A DNA stretch of 64,000 nucleotides, taken from a virus. Positions 19,528 through 26,457 of the stretch are shown piece by piece (positions within the stretch are counted from its first letter, which is position 1; each line of letters starts with the position of its first letter). The translations under genes and the position numbers were made by a program. The notes beneath the pieces are model-generated. The model was not told where the DNA came from and searched no databases. It saw nothing but the letters and a program-made list of their open reading frames with translations. The DNA lies in the IMG/VR virus record IMGVR_UViG_3300050343_000185. One strand, written 5' to 3'.

Positions 19528-20139
19528 TCAACTTCCGAAGGTTAGTGTTGCAGCACCATCTGACATTACTTCTTCAGTACCACCCGCAGAGGTGATCTTG
19601 ACTCTAAACTTGTTACCGTCCAGAGTATCGCCAGCGAGACCACTGTAAGCAAGAGTTGCTGTCGTGAAGTCTGCATAAGTAATACCTGTGTCTGTGCCAG
19701 CAGCGATGTTAACCCAACGCTTACCAGTTGCAGTTTGACGCTGCCACTGATATGCAAGTGCTCCAGGTGTTCCTGTTGTCGTAGTGGTGAGGGTATAAGT
19801 ACCAGAACCTGAAGAAGATGTAGAGTTAGCAGGTTGAACCGTAATGGTAACTGCCGATGCTACGTCTGCTGCGATGGCATCATCTGCCTGAGTTTCTGTG
19901 CCATCAGGATTAGCAACAAAAATAAGTTGCTCTGCCTTATGACGGGTTGCGCCAGAAGAATCAGTATAGGTGAAATAAGACCACCAACCAGGACCAGTAA
20001 TACCACGGGACTTGGTTTCGTTTAGTTGTGCTTCAGTCTCGTCAACGAAGACTGTAGTTTTTGCTTGACTTGACGCTGCAATGCCTACACCAGCTTTGGT
20101 TTTATTTGCATTGCTGTCAGTTCTTCCGTATAGAGACAT
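19528..20139 (-). CDS. Ig-like domain protein (possible virion decoration)
   Basis: ITVQP...LAYQWQ...LDGNKFRVKIT Ig-fold pattern. Confidence 0.65.
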   Translation of the reverse strand: MSLYGRTDSNANKTKAGVGIAASSQAKTTVFVDETEAQLNETKSRGITGPGWWSYFTYTDSSGATRHKAEQLIFVANPDGTETQADDAIAADVASAVTITVQPANSTSSSGSGTYTLTTTTTGTPGALAYQWQRQTATGKRWVNIAAGTDTGITYADFTTATLAYSGLAGDTLDGNKFRVKITSAGGTEEVMSDGAATLTFGS

Positions 20140-20179
20140 GTTTATTCAGCGTTTATTTTCCTAATGGTTATTTATATTC

Positions 20180-20410: not shown

Positions 20411-20770
20411 TTATTTCTCCCACTCGTCTAAAATAGATGTCAATTTTGACATGAACTGTTTAAAATTTAAAAGTGTTCCAGAACGGTAGTCGCGTCTTGC
20501 TTTTGCTACACCAGTTTCAAAAGATTCTTCTAGTGGATCAAAACCTCTGCCTTTAACAACAGCAGACCATGGAGCATACAAAGGACCCTGATAGTTCTTT
20601 GACTCATTAGTAGGTTTAGTAACCATGCCCTTCTGTCCGTCATTAACAGTAGGCATGACTTCTACAGTGCTCTTTTCTTTTTTCTTGGTTTTTTTATTAC
20701 AGCAACTTTTCTTACAATCTTTGGGGCAACTACTGCCACAATCTTCGCGAAGTTGTTTGAATGTTTTCAT
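20411..20770 (-). CDS. Hypothetical protein
   Basis: 119 aa; MKTFKQLRE N-terminus typical of T4-like head-associated proteins. Confidence 0.65.
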   Translation of the reverse strand: MKTFKQLREDCGSSCPKDCKKSCCNKKTKKKEKSTVEVMPTVNDGQKGMVTKPTNESKNYQGPLYAPWSAVVKGRGFDPLEESFETGVAKARRDYRSGTLLNFKQFMSKLTSILDEWEK

Positions 20771-21321
20771 TTTTTCTTTGACATACCAATGATCTTAGAG
20801 ACCTTCTTACGACGCATGTGGAGATACTTGTCAGACTTATCTACATCGCCATCGTTATCGATGTCAGCATCTGCCTTACCTACGGGGTCAAGTTTCTTTT
20901 CAGTGAGTTCATCACCTTCATATTCAACGCCTGCTTTTACACAGTTGTTAACTTCTTTACCACCTTTTTTCTTAGTGCCTTGCTTCTTATATCCTTTCCA
21001 GCATGAGGTGTTGCCGTTGTCATCAACGCCATCCATCTTTACTTTCTCGATGACATAAATCTCGCCATCGATCTCATACTCTTCACGCTCAAGAACTTCT
21101 ACTTCTTCTTTCTTGACCGTTTTCTTTGCTTTCTTTGCTTTTACCGTAGTGTCTTCAATTTCAGCACCATTGGACTGCTGTGGCATACCATCAAATGCTG
21201 CTTCGCTAATGGTAGTATTCTGGAAGGTGTCTCCACCCATCCACTTACCATATGCTTCCATCAACTCAGACGAAAACTCGTCATTATTGTTAACACTATT
21301 GACTGTCTTCTGATACTTCAT
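20767..21321 (-). CDS. Hypothetical acidic protein with CWKGY and EF-hand-like DIDNDGDVD motifs
   Basis: 184 aa ORF. Confidence 0.65.
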   Translation of the reverse strand: MKYQKTVNSVNNNDEFSSELMEAYGKWMGGDTFQNTTISEAAFDGMPQQSNGAEIEDTTVKAKKAKKTVKKEEVEVLEREEYEIDGEIYVIEKVKMDGVDDNGNTSCWKGYKKQGTKKKGGKEVNNCVKAGVEYEGDELTEKKLDPVGKADADIDNDGDVDKSDKYLHMRRKKVSKIIGMSKKK

Positions 21322-21553
21322 CGTTTAACAAGGAGGTTCTTCTCGTATTATTTATAGATCTAATATTCTTAATCCACTCCCTAAACATATTACCTTCTTC
21401 AGAAATTACGATAGCATAGTTTCCACCTACTCTATGGAGATGTCCTTTCTCTCCTGTACGTGATGACATGACAGCATCACCTTCTTTAAATATTTCTTCC
21501 TGCCGCTGTTGTTGACGCAGTGCTTCTTCACGTAGTTTCTTGAAATCTTTCAT
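21296..21553 (-). CDS. Hypothetical SH3-like protein
   Basis: 85 aa; FKEGDAV...G.LHRVGGNYAIV. Confidence 0.65.
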   Translation of the reverse strand: MKDFKKLREEALRQQQRQEEIFKEGDAVMSSRTGEKGHLHRVGGNYAIVISEEGNMFREWIKNIRSINNTRRTSLLNDEVSEDSQ

Positions 21554-22113
21554 TTAAAATTCGCAGGTAGATTTGCTTGTATCTCAATCATCATTTGCTG
21601 GCACTGTTTATCATTCAATGCTCTGGGAATACCAGAACGAAATGTTTTAAAGTCGTTAGCAAATGCGGCACGTCTCATCTTCGTTCCAGAAATAGCAAAG
21701 GTATCTCCATCAGCATCTCTGCTACCAGAAGATTGTATCTCGATTTTTCTGAACGAGAAGTCTTTACCATTGTATTTGTGTAAGAACTGCATCGCACCAA
21801 CACGATCGGATCCAACTAAAAATACAACTTCATTATATCCTCCCAACATTAAGTCTTGCATAATAGCGACAGGATCTTTAGGTCCAGAAATTATTTTACC
21901 ACGATGTTCTGGAAACATCAAGTTCATATAATACAATTTACGATCAGGTGGTAAGGGGTTCTTACCTTTAGTATCAAACGTCTGAGAGATATAGATCCGA
22001 TAGTCATGACTACCCGCGATACGTTTCACCCCATCAAAGTTATCTTTGTGTCCTGTGGTAGGTGGTTGAAACCTACCAAATGTAAAGTAGCAAGTATTAC
22101 AATTTAACGCCAT
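21550..22113 (-). CDS. Cytidylyltransferase-like (HxGH) nucleotidyltransferase
   Basis: TFGRFQPPTTGH, LVGSDR and ISGTKMR motifs. Confidence 0.85.
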   Translation of the reverse strand: MALNCNTCYFTFGRFQPPTTGHKDNFDGVKRIAGSHDYRIYISQTFDTKGKNPLPPDRKLYYMNLMFPEHRGKIISGPKDPVAIMQDLMLGGYNEVVFLVGSDRVGAMQFLHKYNGKDFSFRKIEIQSSGSRDADGDTFAISGTKMRRAAFANDFKTFRSGIPRALNDKQCQQMMIEIQANLPANFK

Positions 22114-23306
22114 TGCTTCTGTAGGGTGAAGTTATTGTAAGCAAACTCCATACGGTTGACAAACTTAATCATATCACCGTCTTTATGTAAGACATATCCT
22201 TCAGGAGTTGTGACCTTATATCCTTTTTCTGTTTGGACAAAAGTCCTGAACTCTTCTAGATGGTCAAGTTTATCTATAACCATTTGCTTGACTGCTTGTA
22301 GTTCTTTATACAAAGTAAGCATTGCTTTGAACTTGTATACATTATCTACTACGTAGTTCTGACTACCATATACAAGTTCTCTCTTCTTAGTCAGGTTTGC
22401 AACTGTCTTGATCTTGGCAAGTTCTTTACTTGTTTTCTCCTCATAGAAGTTCAACATGTCATACATCGTCTCATCAATTCTAACAATACTACGAGCATTC
22501 TTGATTTCATTATTAAAGAACTGTTTGAGATAAGATGCTATATGAAATTTAGAATCACCAGTAGTGCCTGTCTTGGCAACTAATTCGTCCAAGAAATTAC
22601 CACAGATACCACACATACGTTCGATCTTTGAAATATAGTTATTGAATTTAGTCATCTCCGCTTTAGAGAAACCAACCCTATCCATAGGAGTATCATTTTT
22701 GACAAGTAGAACTTCAGGAATATCATTGTAAGTATCAACAGGAGCTCCCGCCAATGCTTGCATTGTAGGTAAGTCAGTTCCCCGATAATGAGTATGAAAT
22801 ACTACACCAATTTTTGATCTACCTGCTGCTTTACCAATAGGATGATCTACTGGAATACCATAGGTAATAGTGTTAGGTCTAAAAGTGTATAGTAGTTCCC
22901 CATTTATAGTTTCTTTTTTAATATCAGAAGTGTAAAGAAGATCTCCTTGAATAACTCCCGTGATACCAAGTTTACTAAAATACCTATACGAAAACTTGAG
23001 TTTTTCTGCAAGGTCTCCACTATACATGGAGTCAACATCTTCTTCCGAATAACAAATCTTGGGAGTGTCTTTATTAAATACAGACTTAGTTCCCACAAAA
23101 AAGATATTAGCGAGAGGATCCATACCACAGATAACAGAAGGCGCACCGTCCCATTTAGTTTGCATAAAACCACCACTCTCTTGCTGACCCAACATCTTGC
23201 GGAGTTCTTTTAAAAATGATACTGCTGCCTTACACCCATCGACGCCATAGTTCAGCATCTCATCTTCCAAGTGCTCTAGGTGCTTGAGCTGTTTAATGTT
23301 TGCCAT
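22104..23306 (-). CDS. Uncharacterised protein with ligase-type covalent nucleotidyltransferase motifs (DUF6267-like)
   Basis: KWDG (motif I), IQGDLL (III), YTF (IIIa), EGYVL (IV) and MIKF (V) occur in the canonical order. Confidence 0.6.
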   Translation of the reverse strand: MANIKQLKHLEHLEDEMLNYGVDGCKAAVSFLKELRKMLGQQESGGFMQTKWDGAPSVICGMDPLANIFFVGTKSVFNKDTPKICYSEEDVDSMYSGDLAEKLKFSYRYFSKLGITGVIQGDLLYTSDIKKETINGELLYTFRPNTITYGIPVDHPIGKAAGRSKIGVVFHTHYRGTDLPTMQALAGAPVDTYNDIPEVLLVKNDTPMDRVGFSKAEMTKFNNYISKIERMCGICGNFLDELVAKTGTTGDSKFHIASYLKQFFNNEIKNARSIVRIDETMYDMLNFYEEKTSKELAKIKTVANLTKKRELVYGSQNYVVDNVYKFKAMLTLYKELQAVKQMVIDKLDHLEEFRTFVQTEKGYKVTTPEGYVLHKDGDMIKFVNRMEFAYNNFTLQKQWR

Positions 23307-24451
23307 TAGTCTACGTACCCATCCTCAGGAACACTGAACACAGCTTCACCATCAAACTTATACGCTGACTGTAGTTTATCAGGCCATGGGTCCGCACTGC
23401 CGCTAGTGTCACGAATGTTAAACTTAAGTTCCATGATGGGTGTGTTGACCGTGATATCAACACGTTGTCCTGTCCCAGTCTTGCCGCCATAGTGGACAGT
23501 TACAGAAGTGATACTAGTAGCGCGATCACATAACTGTTTTGTCATGGGAAAGTTTTTAATTTTACTTCCCTGCTTATGTGTATAGTGATATCCATATCCA
23601 ATAGATCCACGAATCATACCCTGCAACAAAGTTCTATTAAATTGTGGGTTGGGATCATTTCCACCACTTCTAACTCTACCCATCGCTGCTTCATTAAAAA
23701 TTCTACAAAACCTATCGTTATTAATACCAAAAGTTTCTAAAACTTTTAATCCAACATCAGTTTGGATAACACCTTTCTGTATATCATCCTTGGTAAATAT
23801 TTTTTTTACTCCCAAGTTAGACATGGTAGTAGTACCACTAGTTTTAAGAGAAAGATAGATAACACTTTTTTTAGATCCTTTCTTTGTTGTCAGTGTAAGG
23901 TCTGTAACTGTAGATCCAATATCATAGTGTGATCCATCAGCATCGCCAACTTTCCAATTTCCATTCTCATACTTAAGAGGTCTCTTTTTATTTTCACCAC
24001 CTTCAGCAACTACTTTCACAACTTGACAATCTTCTAGATCGTAATACTTAATTAAATCATCAATAAATCCTTTGTATTGATTGTTTGTATATTCTCCATC
24101 TTCAATCCAATCGTTCAATCCATTCTCAAGTTGTCCTTCAAATAAATTGCCTCTATTACCTGTGCCACGATTACCTCTGCTACCATCACCCCAAGTAATT
24201 TTAAAATTAGTATCTAATCCTACCTGTTTTTTAACCTTTGTTACATCAACTGTTCCTTTCAAACCACGCATAATTTTACAACTCTTACCTGCTTTAGTTT
24301 TAGGATTAAATGCCAACGCATCTTCTATGCCATAATGCTCTTTAATATGGTTGTAGAACTGAATGATTGGTCCTATGTATTTCTTTTCAATACTACTCCC
24401 AGCAAGAGATCTCATCTCAGAGGAGTTTTTAGGTATGCTATTAAATGCCAT
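23306..24451 (-). CDS. Putative PD-(D/E)xK restriction-like nuclease
   Basis: GNLFE...TDLTL...YLSLK pattern. Late promoter CTAAATA (24472-24478) and GGAGG upstream. Confidence 0.45.
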   Translation of the reverse strand: MAFNSIPKNSSEMRSLAGSSIEKKYIGPIIQFYNHIKEHYGIEDALAFNPKTKAGKSCKIMRGLKGTVDVTKVKKQVGLDTNFKITWGDGSRGNRGTGNRGNLFEGQLENGLNDWIEDGEYTNNQYKGFIDDLIKYYDLEDCQVVKVVAEGGENKKRPLKYENGNWKVGDADGSHYDIGSTVTDLTLTTKKGSKKSVIYLSLKTSGTTTMSNLGVKKIFTKDDIQKGVIQTDVGLKVLETFGINNDRFCRIFNEAAMGRVRSGGNDPNPQFNRTLLQGMIRGSIGYGYHYTHKQGSKIKNFPMTKQLCDRATSITSVTVHYGGKTGTGQRVDITVNTPIMELKFNIRDTSGSADPWPDKLQSAYKFDGEAVFSVPEDGYVD

Positions 24452-24470
24452 AAGAAAACCTCCCGCCTAA

Positions 24471-24668
24471 CTATTTAGAGGGGAGGTTGAGATAATCTTT
24501 TTCACTTTGATATGGGTGGGTTTGTCCTGTCCATAATCTATACCCTTCCTTAACTTCTGGCAAGAGCCACTGGTCCACACGAACACATTGCTCCCAGTTG
24601 ACAGGGTGAGCACAACTCACCACTACAACAGAAAAGAATGCTCGTAGGTGGATCCAGAGACTGAACAT
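24471..24668 (-). CDS. Hypothetical protein with a lipobox-like VVSC
   Basis: 65 aa with a hydrophobic N-terminus and Cys at about position 19. Confidence 0.55.
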   Translation of the reverse strand: MFSLWIHLRAFFSVVVVSCAHPVNWEQCVRVDQWLLPEVKEGYRLWTGQTHPYQSEKDYLNLPSK

Positions 24669-25071
24669 TATCTGTCGCCAGCAGCACGAACTTCTGAGTT
24701 ATGAACATTGAACTCACCACCTGGATAACGCTTCTTGAGTTTGTTGACGTTAGTTTCAATTACCTCATCGAAGGATATATCAAGTGCCATTGTAGCTTGA
24801 GCAACATACCACATAACATCACCCAACTCAATGATAAGATGCTCACGATTATCTTCGTTCCACGGTTTTCCTTGGAAGACCATTTTTTTAATGATCTCAA
24901 GGAACTCACCGCCCTCAGCATTAATTCCAACCCCAGCAGTAAGAAGTCTCTCAATATTGGCACCTTGTCGATCAAGATCCCCAATACGATCAGCAAAGTC
25001 AACAAAGTTTGTAGAGCCTCTGAAGTAACTGCTGAAACAAATTCTTCATAGCGTTCAAATTTAATAGTCAT
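24668..25071 (-). CDS. mazG: MazG-like nucleoside triphosphate pyrophosphohydrolase; one indel
   Basis: EGGEFLEIIKK...ELGDVMWY motifs; -1 indel at about 25015 (restores SEASTNFVD). Confidence 0.88.
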
Positions 25072-26457
25072 ACGTTCCACTCAGCAAATTTAGATAGTCG
25101 GTTTTGTGTTTGTGCAAATTGTGAGAACTCTTCACCAGGGTCCTCTTCGATTGATGTTGATGTCAGAAGCATCCTCCGCTACATCATACAGCCTCATCTT
25201 GGATCTGTCAATTCCCACCATGAATTTTCGTGAGGCAGCGGTTTCGTTGTATCTGTTCTTAAGTTGTTTGACCATGATGCGACCCTGTTGTTCAAGTTCA
25301 TCAGTACTGATAAGAGCAAACATAAAGTCAGCAGTGGCAGGCAAACCAAAAGACTCAGAAGTATCGGTAAGGTCAGGATCACTATTGCCATAACCACTGC
25401 GAGTAGTTTGAGTAGCTGTGACAATAGGAACATTACATTCCACAGCAAGACCCCGAAGCTCCTCAGCAATCGCCTTGACATACGTGTAAGAATTGACAAT
25501 CGCACCTTTATACCTCGCTGATGCACAGATGTTTAGATAATCAATATAGATTATATCTGGTTTGAAATCTCTCTTGAGAGACAGATCACTTATGAGTGAT
25601 TTGAAGTGTCCAGCATGTGCTGATGCTGTGGGATACTCTTTGATAATAAGTTTGCCTCTAGTTTTCCTAGAGATCTCTTGAACTTTAGAATTGAAGATAA
25701 CTTCAGGTAGTTCAGCAATATCTTTGATAGAAACATTTAAAAGATTCGCGTCAATTCGTTCAGCAATTTTCTCCTCTGCCATTTCACATGTAATATAGAG
25801 TACGTTCCTCCCCTGGGTGAGTGCGGCACCAGCGCAATGGCACATGAATAGAGACTTGCCGACACCCGTTCCAGCAAGAGCGACACTGAGAGTCTTGTTA
25901 GAGATACCACCTTTAGTAATATAGTTAAACTTTTCCAGATCAAAGGGAACCTTCTCTTCTTTGCGGTGATAGAATTCATAGCGGTCTTTTGCTTGTTCAA
26001 TGTAATCGTGTCCTATGTGTTCGTCGAACGATACTGCCAAGGCTTCTTGTAAGATACCTGGGATCGCATCCTTTGATATTTTTTTATCGCCTCCATCTGC
26101 GATCTTGATCGAGGACATAAGGGCGAGATAGATTGCTCTGTCTTGACACCACTTTTCGGTTGCGTCGAGGAGCCACTCGTAGTCAACCCATTCGTCTGTG
26201 AGTCCTCGTATTGTCGATAACGAATCTCTGAACGTTTCGTCAGTAAGATCATTACGATTTTGGAGATTAATCGATAAGACTTCTTGAGTAGGAACTTTGT
26301 CATACTTACCAGCGAAGTCAGCGATCTCTTCAAAGATAACTTTCTCATGATACTCCTCAAAATAATCTGCTCTTAGGAAAGGAACTACCTTACGATAATA
26401 CTCTTCAGTGAAGATGAGATTACGTAAGATAGTTTGTTGAATGCGCTCAGTTGCCAT
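25068..26457 (-). CDS. gp41: Replicative DNA helicase (T4 gp41-like); one indel near the C-terminus
   Basis: Walker [20 protein letters not shown]; +1 indel at about 25150. Confidence 0.93.

Follow-up and report, generated by a model that had tools for sequence, protein, structure and literature searches.

The question raised by this stretch of viral DNA (IMG/VR record IMGVR_UViG_3300050343_000185; the whole stretch of 64,000 nucleotides is referred to here as the window) is what is done by three overlapping genes on its minus strand, which encode proteins of 381, 400 and 187 amino acids (aa). A first-pass annotation made from the letters alone had described them as a nuclease-like gene, a KxDG ligase-like gene and an HxGH nucleotidyltransferase gene, and had offered nucleic-acid repair or capping amongst the possible roles. 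The window belongs to a marine cyanomyovirus of the T4-like kind (Kyanoviridae), and our analysis suggests, with a probability of roughly 0.6, that the 400-aa protein seals strands as an enzyme of the RNA-ligase type and works with the 187-aa protein, a partner resembling the nicotinamide mononucleotide adenylyltransferases (NMNATs). The core of the module formed by these two genes would then be a two-enzyme nucleic-acid end-joining module which has gone unrecognised in print.

A ligase-type fold is predicted for the DUF6267 protein

The 400-aa protein belongs to Pfam DUF6267 (E 2e-123) and phrog_455, neither of which has an assigned function, and a full-text literature search found no paper naming the family. 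DUF6267 is represented by 2,311 cluster representatives (50% identity) at E ≤ 0.001 in an exhaustive search, and its range is the marine Kyanoviridae plus metagenomes, so that the earlier suggestion of a gene pair to be looked for across T4-like phages at large was too broad; the family was absent from 14 control cellular genomes. It was found in 456 records of the phage collection, of which 441 are cyanophage (356/61/24), and from these sequences it appears to be near-universal in cyanomyoviruses.

The five strings which had been picked out as ligase motifs (KWDG, IQGDLL, YTF, EGYVL and IKF) do occur in that order, and we assign them to motif I (K51-W-D53-G54), motif III (Q120-G-D122), motif IIIa (F142), motif IV (E369-G370) and motif V (K381). 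In a set of 91 DUF6267 homologues with 29–62% identity, K51, D53, G54, D122, Y149, H171, K340, E369, G370 and K381 are invariant and F142 is nearly so, and because the seven motif I, III, IV and V residues amongst these (K51, D53, G54, D122, E369, G370 and K381) never vary, the strings are more than chance matches. An N-terminal HLEHLED segment is also conserved across the homologues. All of the motifs are kept by the short DUF6267 protein of phage P-SSM2 (AAX44453.1, T4-GC 71, 270 aa as annotated), in which motif I reads KIDG and the helical insert described below is smaller.

An AlphaFold2 model of the 400-aa protein was obtained with a predicted local distance difference test (pLDDT) score of 93.8 and a predicted template modelling score of 0.91. 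In this model the motif residues are carried on strands 118–125, 137–142, 370–375 and 378–382, and an all-helical insertion of ~145 residues (~205–350) lies between motifs IIIa and IV. Only a short helix (385–394) remains after motif V, and the protein is therefore predicted to have no OB domain, as had been proposed from the sequence. When the model was compared with 48,161 PDB representatives, ranks 1–7 were all taken by the nucleotidyltransferase (NTase) domains of RNA ligases, with Z of 8.1–6.7 over 167–194 aligned residues, amongst them NgrRnl (5cot; Z 8.1, 185 aligned residues), REL1 (1xdn; Z 7.8, 191), Trl1 (6n0t; Z 7.4, 188), T4 Rnl2 (Z 6.9, 176) and T4 Rnl1 (9do4; Z 6.7, 167). DNA ligases were found in the same search at Z 5–6 (Sulfolobus, Archaeoglobus, human Lig3, T7, Chlorella virus and African swine fever virus). 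Despite the moderate Z we regard the fold assignment as solid, because the hit list is consistent and the motif residues are invariant.

None of the known ligase families accommodates the protein. A profile comparison (hhalign) of the 91 DUF6267 homologues with 30 Rnl1 sequences gave a probability of 2.7% over 21 columns covering motifs IV–V only, in which E369-G370 and K381 are paired with T4 Rnl1 E227-G228 and K240 (PEG(F/Y)VA...(V/I)K(L/F)); T4 Rnl1 taken singly aligned over these two motifs only, and hhalign against T4 Rnl2 gave 0.1%. Membership in the T4 Rnl1/Trl1 family (PF09511) was rejected on the first of these values and on the silence of PF09511 in S-RSM4 and G001, the two complete genomes nearest to the window. 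We also rejected the Rnl2-like family (PF09414), for which there was no Pfam match and where the Z of 6.9 reflects a shared fold only, the ATP-dependent DNA ligases (PF01068 plus OB domain), given that no OB domain follows motif V and no profile match was found, and the LigA family (PF01653), whose profile matched neither the 400-aa protein nor anything in S-RSM4 or G001. As the Rnl1 and Rnl2 matches are so slight, we place the protein in the superfamily but in no known family, and on the strength of the model there is a solid case for a divergent member of the ligase/capping covalent nucleotidyltransferase superfamily which forms a family of its own.

DUF6267 shares with the ATP-dependent, nick-sealing RNA ligases NgrRnl (Naegleria), REL1 (Trypanosoma) and T4 Rnl2 (1s68, 2hvq) a KxDG-type motif I, the order in which motifs III, IIIa, IV and V come after it, and the lack of an OB domain, but shows no sequence or profile similarity to them. 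It differs further in having Asp in motif III and a single motif V Lys, in the added N-terminal HLEHLED segment and what looks to be an obligate NMNAT-like partner, and in the position of the helical domain, which is inserted between IIIa and IV in DUF6267, appended C-terminally in Rnl2 and N-terminal in Rnl5 (NgrRnl). Three T4 Rnl1 residues, R54, K75 and F77, have no evident counterpart in DUF6267, and the second motif V lysine of Rnl1 (K242) is also missing; motif V of LigA, like that of DUF6267, has one lysine only. A P-loop kinase is attached to the ligase of the fungal Trl1, and one DUF6267 fusion described below has this arrangement too. The DNA ligases have the superfamily fold and the KxDG motif I in common with DUF6267 at a lower Z than the RNA ligases, whereas DUF6267 has no OB domain, DNA-binding domain or LigA domain Ia.

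Pairing with an NMNAT-like nucleotidyltransferase

We examined gene order in 80 IMG/VR loci with DUF6267 genes 33–89% identical to that of the window. Sixty-eight of these were informative, and in 66 of them the partner domain follows DUF6267 on the same strand, as a fusion in two, as the next gene in 50 and at a distance of up to 4 kb in 14. Fusions are known in both orders, DUF6267–partner (P0133, P0184, P0204, P0257 and P0152) and partner–DUF6267 (P0139, P0150 and P0218), and in the phage collection the 456 records with DUF6267 compare with 545 with the partner (nearly equal cyanophage counts of 356/61/24 and 363/61/24, respectively). Judged by these patterns the two are a putative obligate pair. 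The genes are far apart in ACG-2014f and S-CAM7, and jumbo phages of enterobacteria (coliphages) and of pseudomonads have the partner too, with no DUF6267 found in them by tblastn at E ≤ 1e-5. The first-pass annotation had staked its proposal on three points, naming an unrelated fold, a variable KxDG Lys or a failure of the two genes to co-occur as grounds for giving it up; the fold is of the ligase type, the Lys is invariant, and the genes keep company.

Other enzymes join the pair in some relatives. A P-loop kinase of the AAA_33 family is fused to the partner in L051 and directly to DUF6267 in P0208, and a Pol-beta-type nucleotidyltransferase is fused to the partner in four loci (L043, L044, L053 and L070). 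Systems for RNA end healing and sealing are typically built from a kinase, a ligase and a template-independent nucleotidyltransferase (PMC7824862). We also observed a metagenomic polypeptide of 1325 aa (P0253) which combines DUF6267, NMNAT-like, RimK-type ATP-grasp and 'putative ATP-dependent zinc protease' domains, and two proteins (P0200 and gene 17 of phage Melnitz) where DUF5824 is added in place of the extra domains of P0253. The domain architectures of all three resemble those of polyvalent proteins.

The partner encoded in the window matches phrog_3041 (E 7e-71), which is annotated 'cytidyltransferase', and carries the motifs FGRFQPPTTGH, KNPL, GSDR and ISGTKMR. Across the partner family the invariant motifs are FGRFxPxxxGH, KxxNP, GxDR, YNG, SxGxR and S..(K)(M)R, with G21, H22, S142 and R147 invariant. 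The HxGH which had been claimed for this protein is TTGH in this phage (T19-T20-G21-H22), and of these four residues only G21 and H22 are invariant in the family, although some relatives have a true HAGH; the assignment to the HxGH class stands in this looser form. We read the partner as NMNAT-like because the nearest solved proteins, all weakly matched, are of the NMNAT branch, and it is, by its motifs, a predicted NMNAT-like adenylyltransferase of the NadM/NadR branch and HxGH class. Three features are common to it and to NadM/NadR (MJ0541 1f9a, NadR 1lw7 and NadM-Nudix 2qjo), namely GRFxPxxxGH, NP(L/F) after strand 2 and S-G/A-T/S-K-M/I-R near the C-terminus. In contrast to those enzymes, the first His of HxGH is usually Thr in the partner, which has extra invariant GSDR, YNG and SxGxRD motifs as well as a tail domain of the SH3-like kind, and is genetically linked not to NAD salvage but to a gene for a ligase-like protein. 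The TIGR01526 nadR model matched the 187-aa protein weakly (13.7 bits against a cut-off of 341), and its language-model neighbours are viral 'cytidyltransferase' clusters together with one 'citrate lyase ligase C-terminal' cluster.

Alignments indicate that the SH3-like tail, a small beta-barrel, is the C-terminal domain of the nucleotidyltransferase in most relatives and a separate 85-aa protein in the window. A comparison of this protein with the SH3-like RNA-binding barrel of uL2 was not significant (E 0.36). We rejected the label 'ribonucleotide reductase alpha subunit' which phrog_4808 would give to the 85-aa protein as annotation carry-over, the protein being the tail domain of the nucleotidyltransferase.

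The upstream gene encodes a predicted nuclease

The 381-aa protein at the head of the module belongs to phrog_8438, has 239 homologues and no Pfam family. The suggestion that it is nuclease-like was borne out by its AlphaFold2 model (pLDDT 82.9), for which Foldseek returned HinP1I (2fkc) with a probability of 1.00 (E 4e-4) and MspI with a probability of 0.98, and VIA-align gave Z 8.8 for HinP1I (200/241 residues) and Z 8.3 for MspI (201/262), with the next match at Z 5.4. The HinP1I/MspI-like part covers residues ~88–375. E105, D184, S201 and K203 are invariant amongst the homologues, making E105, D184 and S201-x-K203 the candidate catalytic residues, and the spacing of D184...S201-x-K203 resembles that of D...(Q/N)xK in the type IIP restriction endonucleases HinP1I and MspI. 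The model thus gives the 381-aa protein a PD-(D/E)xK fold of the HinP1I/MspI type and makes it a predicted nuclease. It differs from HinP1I and MspI in sequence (8–14% identity), in having an extra N-terminal domain of ~90 residues and Ser where these enzymes have Gln or Asn, and in that no methyltransferase partner was seen with it. Cleavage by nucleases with this fold produces 5'-phosphate and 3'-OH termini, and these can be ligated with no prior end healing.

Only 12 of the 67 loci informative on this point (~18%) have the nuclease gene upstream of DUF6267, and for this reason we consider it an optional accessory to the core pair. Gene 14 of Melnitz occupies the position of the nuclease, and was rejected as a homologue of the 381-aa protein as no homology could be detected.

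Capsid-targeting tags in relatives of the module

The T4 internal proteins IPII and IPIII begin with MKTYQEFIAE, and in the T4 capsid-targeting sequence (CTS) residues 4 and 7 serve targeting and residues 8 and 10 processing by gp21 (PMC9026906). With the requirement that, in the first ten residues, position 4 be aromatic, position 7 hydrophobic, position 8 I/L and position 10 E, we found the tag M-x-x-F/Y-x-x-(F/Y/L)-(I/L/V)-x-E in 27 of the 91 DUF6267 representatives under a strict and in 33 under a loose reading, with a conserved KNxHLEHLED directly after it. The N-termini of these relatives, which are of the form MKxFxxF[IL]xE, fit the IPII/IPIII pattern. In the 80 loci the tag is carried by 21 of 882 open reading frames (ORFs), all on the strand of the module, and these comprise nine DUF6267 proteins, five partners, one nuclease homologue (L069) and six small neighbours. 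The pattern M-K-x-F/Y-x-x-F/Y-I/L-x-E of T4 IPII and IPIII, which like IPI and Alt are capsid-targeted and ejected, is thus shared by relatives of all three enzymes, many of them non-cyanophage, and the difference lies in the cargo, which consists of nucleic-acid enzymes in the relatives of the module and of small basic proteins in T4.

The cultured Kyanoviridae phage Melnitz, which infects Methylophilales, has tags on genes 14–17 and 19 and a weaker variant on gene 20 (L085 3872–10944), and the tagged genes include those for the DUF6267 protein and for a partner–DUF5824 protein. Such a run points to a set of ejected internal proteins encoded between gp41 and the genes after it. Mass spectrometry of cyanophage virions has identified the cytidylyltransferase, and the authors of that work themselves caution about contamination (PMC10665884). 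Going by the tags, the module is probably loaded into the head in the tagged relatives and ejected with the DNA, and would therefore act at the very start of infection.

In the window, the 85-aa (MKDFKKLRE) and 119-aa (MKTFKQLRE) proteins begin with a shifted look-alike of the CTS and its L-x-E protease site, MK[DT]FK[KQ]LRE. That of the 85-aa protein is perhaps no tag, as the stretch is homologous to an internal helix of the fused nucleotidyltransferases.

Other ligases and end-healing enzymes

We checked for other ligases in S-RSM4 and G001, where PF01068, PF09414, PF09511 and PF01653 gave no match at E ≤ 1, and where neither RtcB nor an AAA_33 kinase above threshold was found. DUF6267 occurs once in each of these genomes and is the only ligase-superfamily gene found there. 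This status, the kinase and Pol-beta fusions, and the capsid tags and virion association of relatives had no place in the first-pass annotation and extend it. Cyanomyoviruses have been described as having no gp30 ligase, with the proviso that a distant homologue may have been overlooked (PMC2984593), and Iyer et al. 2021 found a ligase to be likewise lacking in their subgroup 2.1 (PMC7824862). We considered whether the stand-alone 'ligase DNA-binding domain' which these authors list for P-SSM2 (AAX44695.1) might be the DUF6267 gene, and rejected this since the P-SSM2 homologue is AAX44453.1.

Locus layout and expression signals

In the region of the module the window is 80–83% identical at the DNA level to Synechococcus phages Sf-CH1b and S-RSM4, and in the latter the counterpart genes lie between g43/uvsX/g41/mazG and g61/nrdA and are annotated as two hypothetical proteins and a 'cytidyltransferase'. 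The three overlapping genes were correctly recognised from the outset, with overlaps of 1 nt between the 381-aa and 400-aa genes and 10 nt between the 400-aa and 187-aa genes (Table 1). As an operon of three, the run was drawn too short, as three further overlapping genes follow the 187-aa gene down to position 20411. The DUF7201 gene is found downstream of the module in 35 of the 80 loci and the gene for the 119-aa protein in six. We note that the C-terminus of the DUF7201 protein (~153–184) has an EF-hand-like DxDxDGDxD...YLxxRRK motif which occurs once in the window and matches several unrelated cyanophage phrogs.

Table 1. Features of the module region in the window (strand is relative to the sequence as presented).
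Feature	Positions	Strand	Basis or remark
mazG, split over two frames	24668-25080	-	break near 25016-25020
Spacer between mazG and 381-aa gene	24479-24667		no ORF of at least 60 aa
Late-promoter-like box CTAAATA	24472-24478	-	20 nt upstream of ATG of 381-aa gene; function inferred
Shine-Dalgarno-like GGGAGG	24459-24464	-	7 nt before ATG at 24451; direct sequence reading
381-aa restriction-endonuclease-fold protein (predicted)	23306-24451	-	ORF list; phrog_8438
400-aa DUF6267 ligase-type nucleotidyltransferase (predicted)	22104-23306	-	ORF list; Pfam DUF6267, phrog_455
187-aa NMNAT-like nucleotidyltransferase (predicted)	21550-22113	-	ORF list; phrog_3041
85-aa small beta-barrel (SH3-like) protein	21296-21553	-	match to positions 208-276 of phrog_395 'cytidyltransferase'
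T4-type late box TATAAATA, exact	21349-21356	-	28 nt before ATG (21321) of DUF7201 gene
184-aa DUF7201 protein	20767-21321	-	Pfam DUF7201 E 1.5e-29
119-aa Cys- and Lys-rich protein, last coupled gene	20411-20770	-	ORF list
Second T4-type late box TATAAATA, exact	20169-20176	-	30 nt before ATG at 20139

The late box and Shine-Dalgarno sequence which had been seen ahead of the first gene are both present in the form of CTAAATA and GGGAGG, though the box is one mismatch away from the published cyanophage late-promoter consensus NATAAATA (PMC2984593) and we therefore describe it as late-promoter-like. All 13 copies of CTAAATA in the window are on the minus (coding) strand and several lie 20–40 nt before start codons. 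The word itself is not enriched (13 matches against 13.1 expected), and a promoter role is for this reason backed by strand and position only. From these signals and the two exact TATAAATA boxes further down, the entire stretch looks to be late-transcribed. The gene which starts after the second of these boxes corresponds, in position only, to an annotated 'head protein' of S-RSM4.

Upstream of the module, residues 2–18 of S-RSM4 MazG match one frame of the mazG gene in the window and residues 19–133 (80% identity) another, from which we deduce a 1-nt deletion (or a 2-nt insertion) around GAGGCTCT. The break could be a true frameshift or a pseudogene, or else an assembly error. The adjoining spacer corresponds in position to two S-RSM4 genes, a small hypothetical one and one for a putative thioredoxin.

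Proposed role and alternative explanations

For the DUF6267 protein and its partner, we infer adenylylation of K51, strand sealing, the kind of substrate and the timing as follows. Lys51 of KWDG would take a nucleoside monophosphate (NMP), most likely AMP, from a nucleotide donor and pass it to a 5'-phosphate end, which would then be sealed to a 3'-OH, with the helical insert between motifs IIIa and IV holding the substrate in place of the missing OB/C-terminal domain. The partner and its SH3-like tail (the 85-aa protein in this phage) would work with the ligase as an obligate pair. Its most likely task would be to make or regenerate the adenylyl donor in the form of nicotinamide adenine dinucleotide (NAD+) from nicotinamide mononucleotide (NMN) and ATP, and the most economical link between an NMNAT and a ligase would be one where NAD+ is the AMP donor and the NMN released is recharged with ATP; alternatively, the partner may adenylylate the phosphate end directly. 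Where it is present, the HinP1I/MspI-like nuclease encoded upstream would supply 5'-phosphate/3'-OH ends for direct joining. The genes would be expressed from the late-type promoter box which they follow, and in the tagged relatives they would form a head-loaded module.

Several observations weigh against strand sealing by such a pair or against parts of it. Foldseek found no significant match in the PDB for the model of the 400-aa protein, with ligases only amongst the noise, sequence and profile searches of PDB sequences reached no ligase and returned only low-complexity helical matches, and the Z values of 7–8 are in the 'middling' range by the tool's own grading. The Glu of ligase motif III is replaced by Asp, and motif V contains a single lysine instead of two. 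On the side of the partner, the matches to the nearest solved proteins (MJ0541 NMNAT, NadR, NadM-Nudix and the TmcAL-like MJ0951) are weak (E 0.02–2), and related viral clusters carry a citrate-lyase-ligase-like label. The nuclease gene is missing from most loci, the late box is a 7-mer present at chance frequency, and these cyanophages have no recognisable end-healing kinase, which makes for a poor fit with classic tRNA repair. Finally, delivery with the DNA is extrapolated to the window phage from its relatives. The three enzymes of the window have no CTS (their N-termini are MANIKQLKHLEH, MALNCNTCYF and MAFNSIPKNS), and packaging in this cyanophage is therefore uncertain; the DUF6267 protein, the partner and the nuclease begin exactly at what would be the end of the tag (MANIKQLKHLEHLED; MAFNSIPK against ...VSE/AYDIIPK in L069).

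With regard to the substrate, we would give RNA a little under half of the weight, DNA just over a third and anything else about a fifth. RNA is somewhat the likelier, given which structures lie nearest, that there is no OB domain, and that kinase and Pol-beta enzymes are found as fusions. What keeps DNA in contention is the nuclease with its restriction-enzyme fold, the location of the gene within the replication module, the lack of a kinase in these cyanophages and the status of the gene as the only ligase-like one of the group. The fullest version of the strand-sealing proposal, which we put forward tentatively and would not ourselves bet on as a whole, is that of a head-packaged, DNA-ejected two-enzyme ligation system of marine T4-like phages. 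The NMNAT-like enzyme would make the donor (NAD+ from NMN and ATP) or pre-adenylylate the 5'-phosphate for a new type of ligase with a helical insert for the OB/C-terminal domain, and this would be the long-missing cyanomyovirus ligase, acting on broken phage DNA or on host or phage RNA before phage gene expression.

A possible alternative, which we hold with similar caution, is a dedicated RNA repair system in which the ligase would reseal RNAs, such as tRNAs, after cleavage by anticodon nucleases of the host or by abortive-infection RNases, with the kinase and Pol-beta enzymes of relatives healing the ends and the NMNAT-like enzyme supplying NAD+ or adenylate. The best structural neighbours are all RNA ligases, and the absence of an OB domain and the presence of a helical accessory domain are also as in Rnl1 and Rnl2; to these may be added the fusions in relatives and, as a lead only, a viral PF09414 RNA_ligase cluster in the ESM Atlas (score 0.76). 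Ejection at the start of infection would forestall RNase defences. However, no polynucleotide kinase, phosphatase or RtcB was detected in this cyanophage or its nearest complete relatives, the upstream gene in the window has the fold of a DNA restriction enzyme, and the gap in Z between RNA and DNA ligases is only ~2 units.

We are rather more doubtful that the protein is the missing DNA ligase of the cyanomyoviruses, either as a substitute for gp30 in Okazaki joining and recombination or in sealing nicks of the incoming genome. This would suit a gene in the replication module, between gp41/uvsX/gp43 and gp61/nrdA, which is the sole ligase-superfamily gene in S-RSM4 and G001 and near-universal in cyanomyoviruses (the 441 cyanophage records, and P-SSM2 with its T4-GC 71), and which may follow a nuclease that would leave ligatable DNA ends; an overlooked distant ligase homologue is also allowed for in the literature (PMC2984593). 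Set against this, the protein lacks both an OB domain and the kind of DNA-binding domain that every known DNA ligase has, DNA ligases score below RNA ligases in the structural search, and a late-type promoter and capsid tags in relatives are unexpected for a replisome enzyme, while the NAD+-dependent LigA of the host can serve replication (PMC2984593).

It is unlikely, in our view, that the module serves NAD+ or nucleotide metabolism or NMP-tagging and does not join strands, with the partner restoring NAD+ against NAD-depleting defences and the ligase-fold protein moving an NMP to a non-polynucleotide or cap-like acceptor. The three motifs which the partner has in common with NadM/NadR NMNATs are in keeping with such a role, as is the presence of the partner family in jumbo coliphages with no detectable DUF6267, and it has been suggested that a virion-borne cytidylyltransferase modulates host NAD+ (PMC10665884). 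Nonetheless, all characterised members with the ligase NTase fold act on polynucleotide ends, and nucleic-acid ends are also what the fusions to kinase and Pol-beta enzymes speak for. To our knowledge the phage pathways which restore NAD+ use other enzymes, which also counts against this explanation, and for capping or protein NMPylation, both raised by the first-pass annotation, we found no specific support. That the protein is a structural or scaffolding head protein with a dead ligase fold, as might be imagined from the capsid tags in relatives and the late-type promoter, is very improbable, as every catalytic-motif residue is invariant across homologues of 29–62% identity and is kept in the short forms too, which would not be expected of a dead enzyme.

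Implications for cyanomyoviruses

If the strand-sealing pair is as we propose, DUF6267 would add to the ligase superfamily a new branch set apart by its uncommon domain arrangement and by an NMNAT-like enzyme as obligate partner; we know of no characterised ligase for which a pairing of this kind has been described. Molecular biology uses RNA and DNA ligases as tools, and a new and perhaps partner-dependent type could be useful. The tags in relatives suggest that nucleic-acid repair enzymes are delivered along with the genome, which would make them a new cargo for the T4 internal-protein route and plausibly a form of counter-defence. Cyanomyoviruses count amongst the ocean's most abundant viruses, and for 15 years reviews have described them as ligase-less and as borrowing the ligase of their host; a near-universal and catalytically intact ligase-fold gene would, if our proposal is correct, change this picture.

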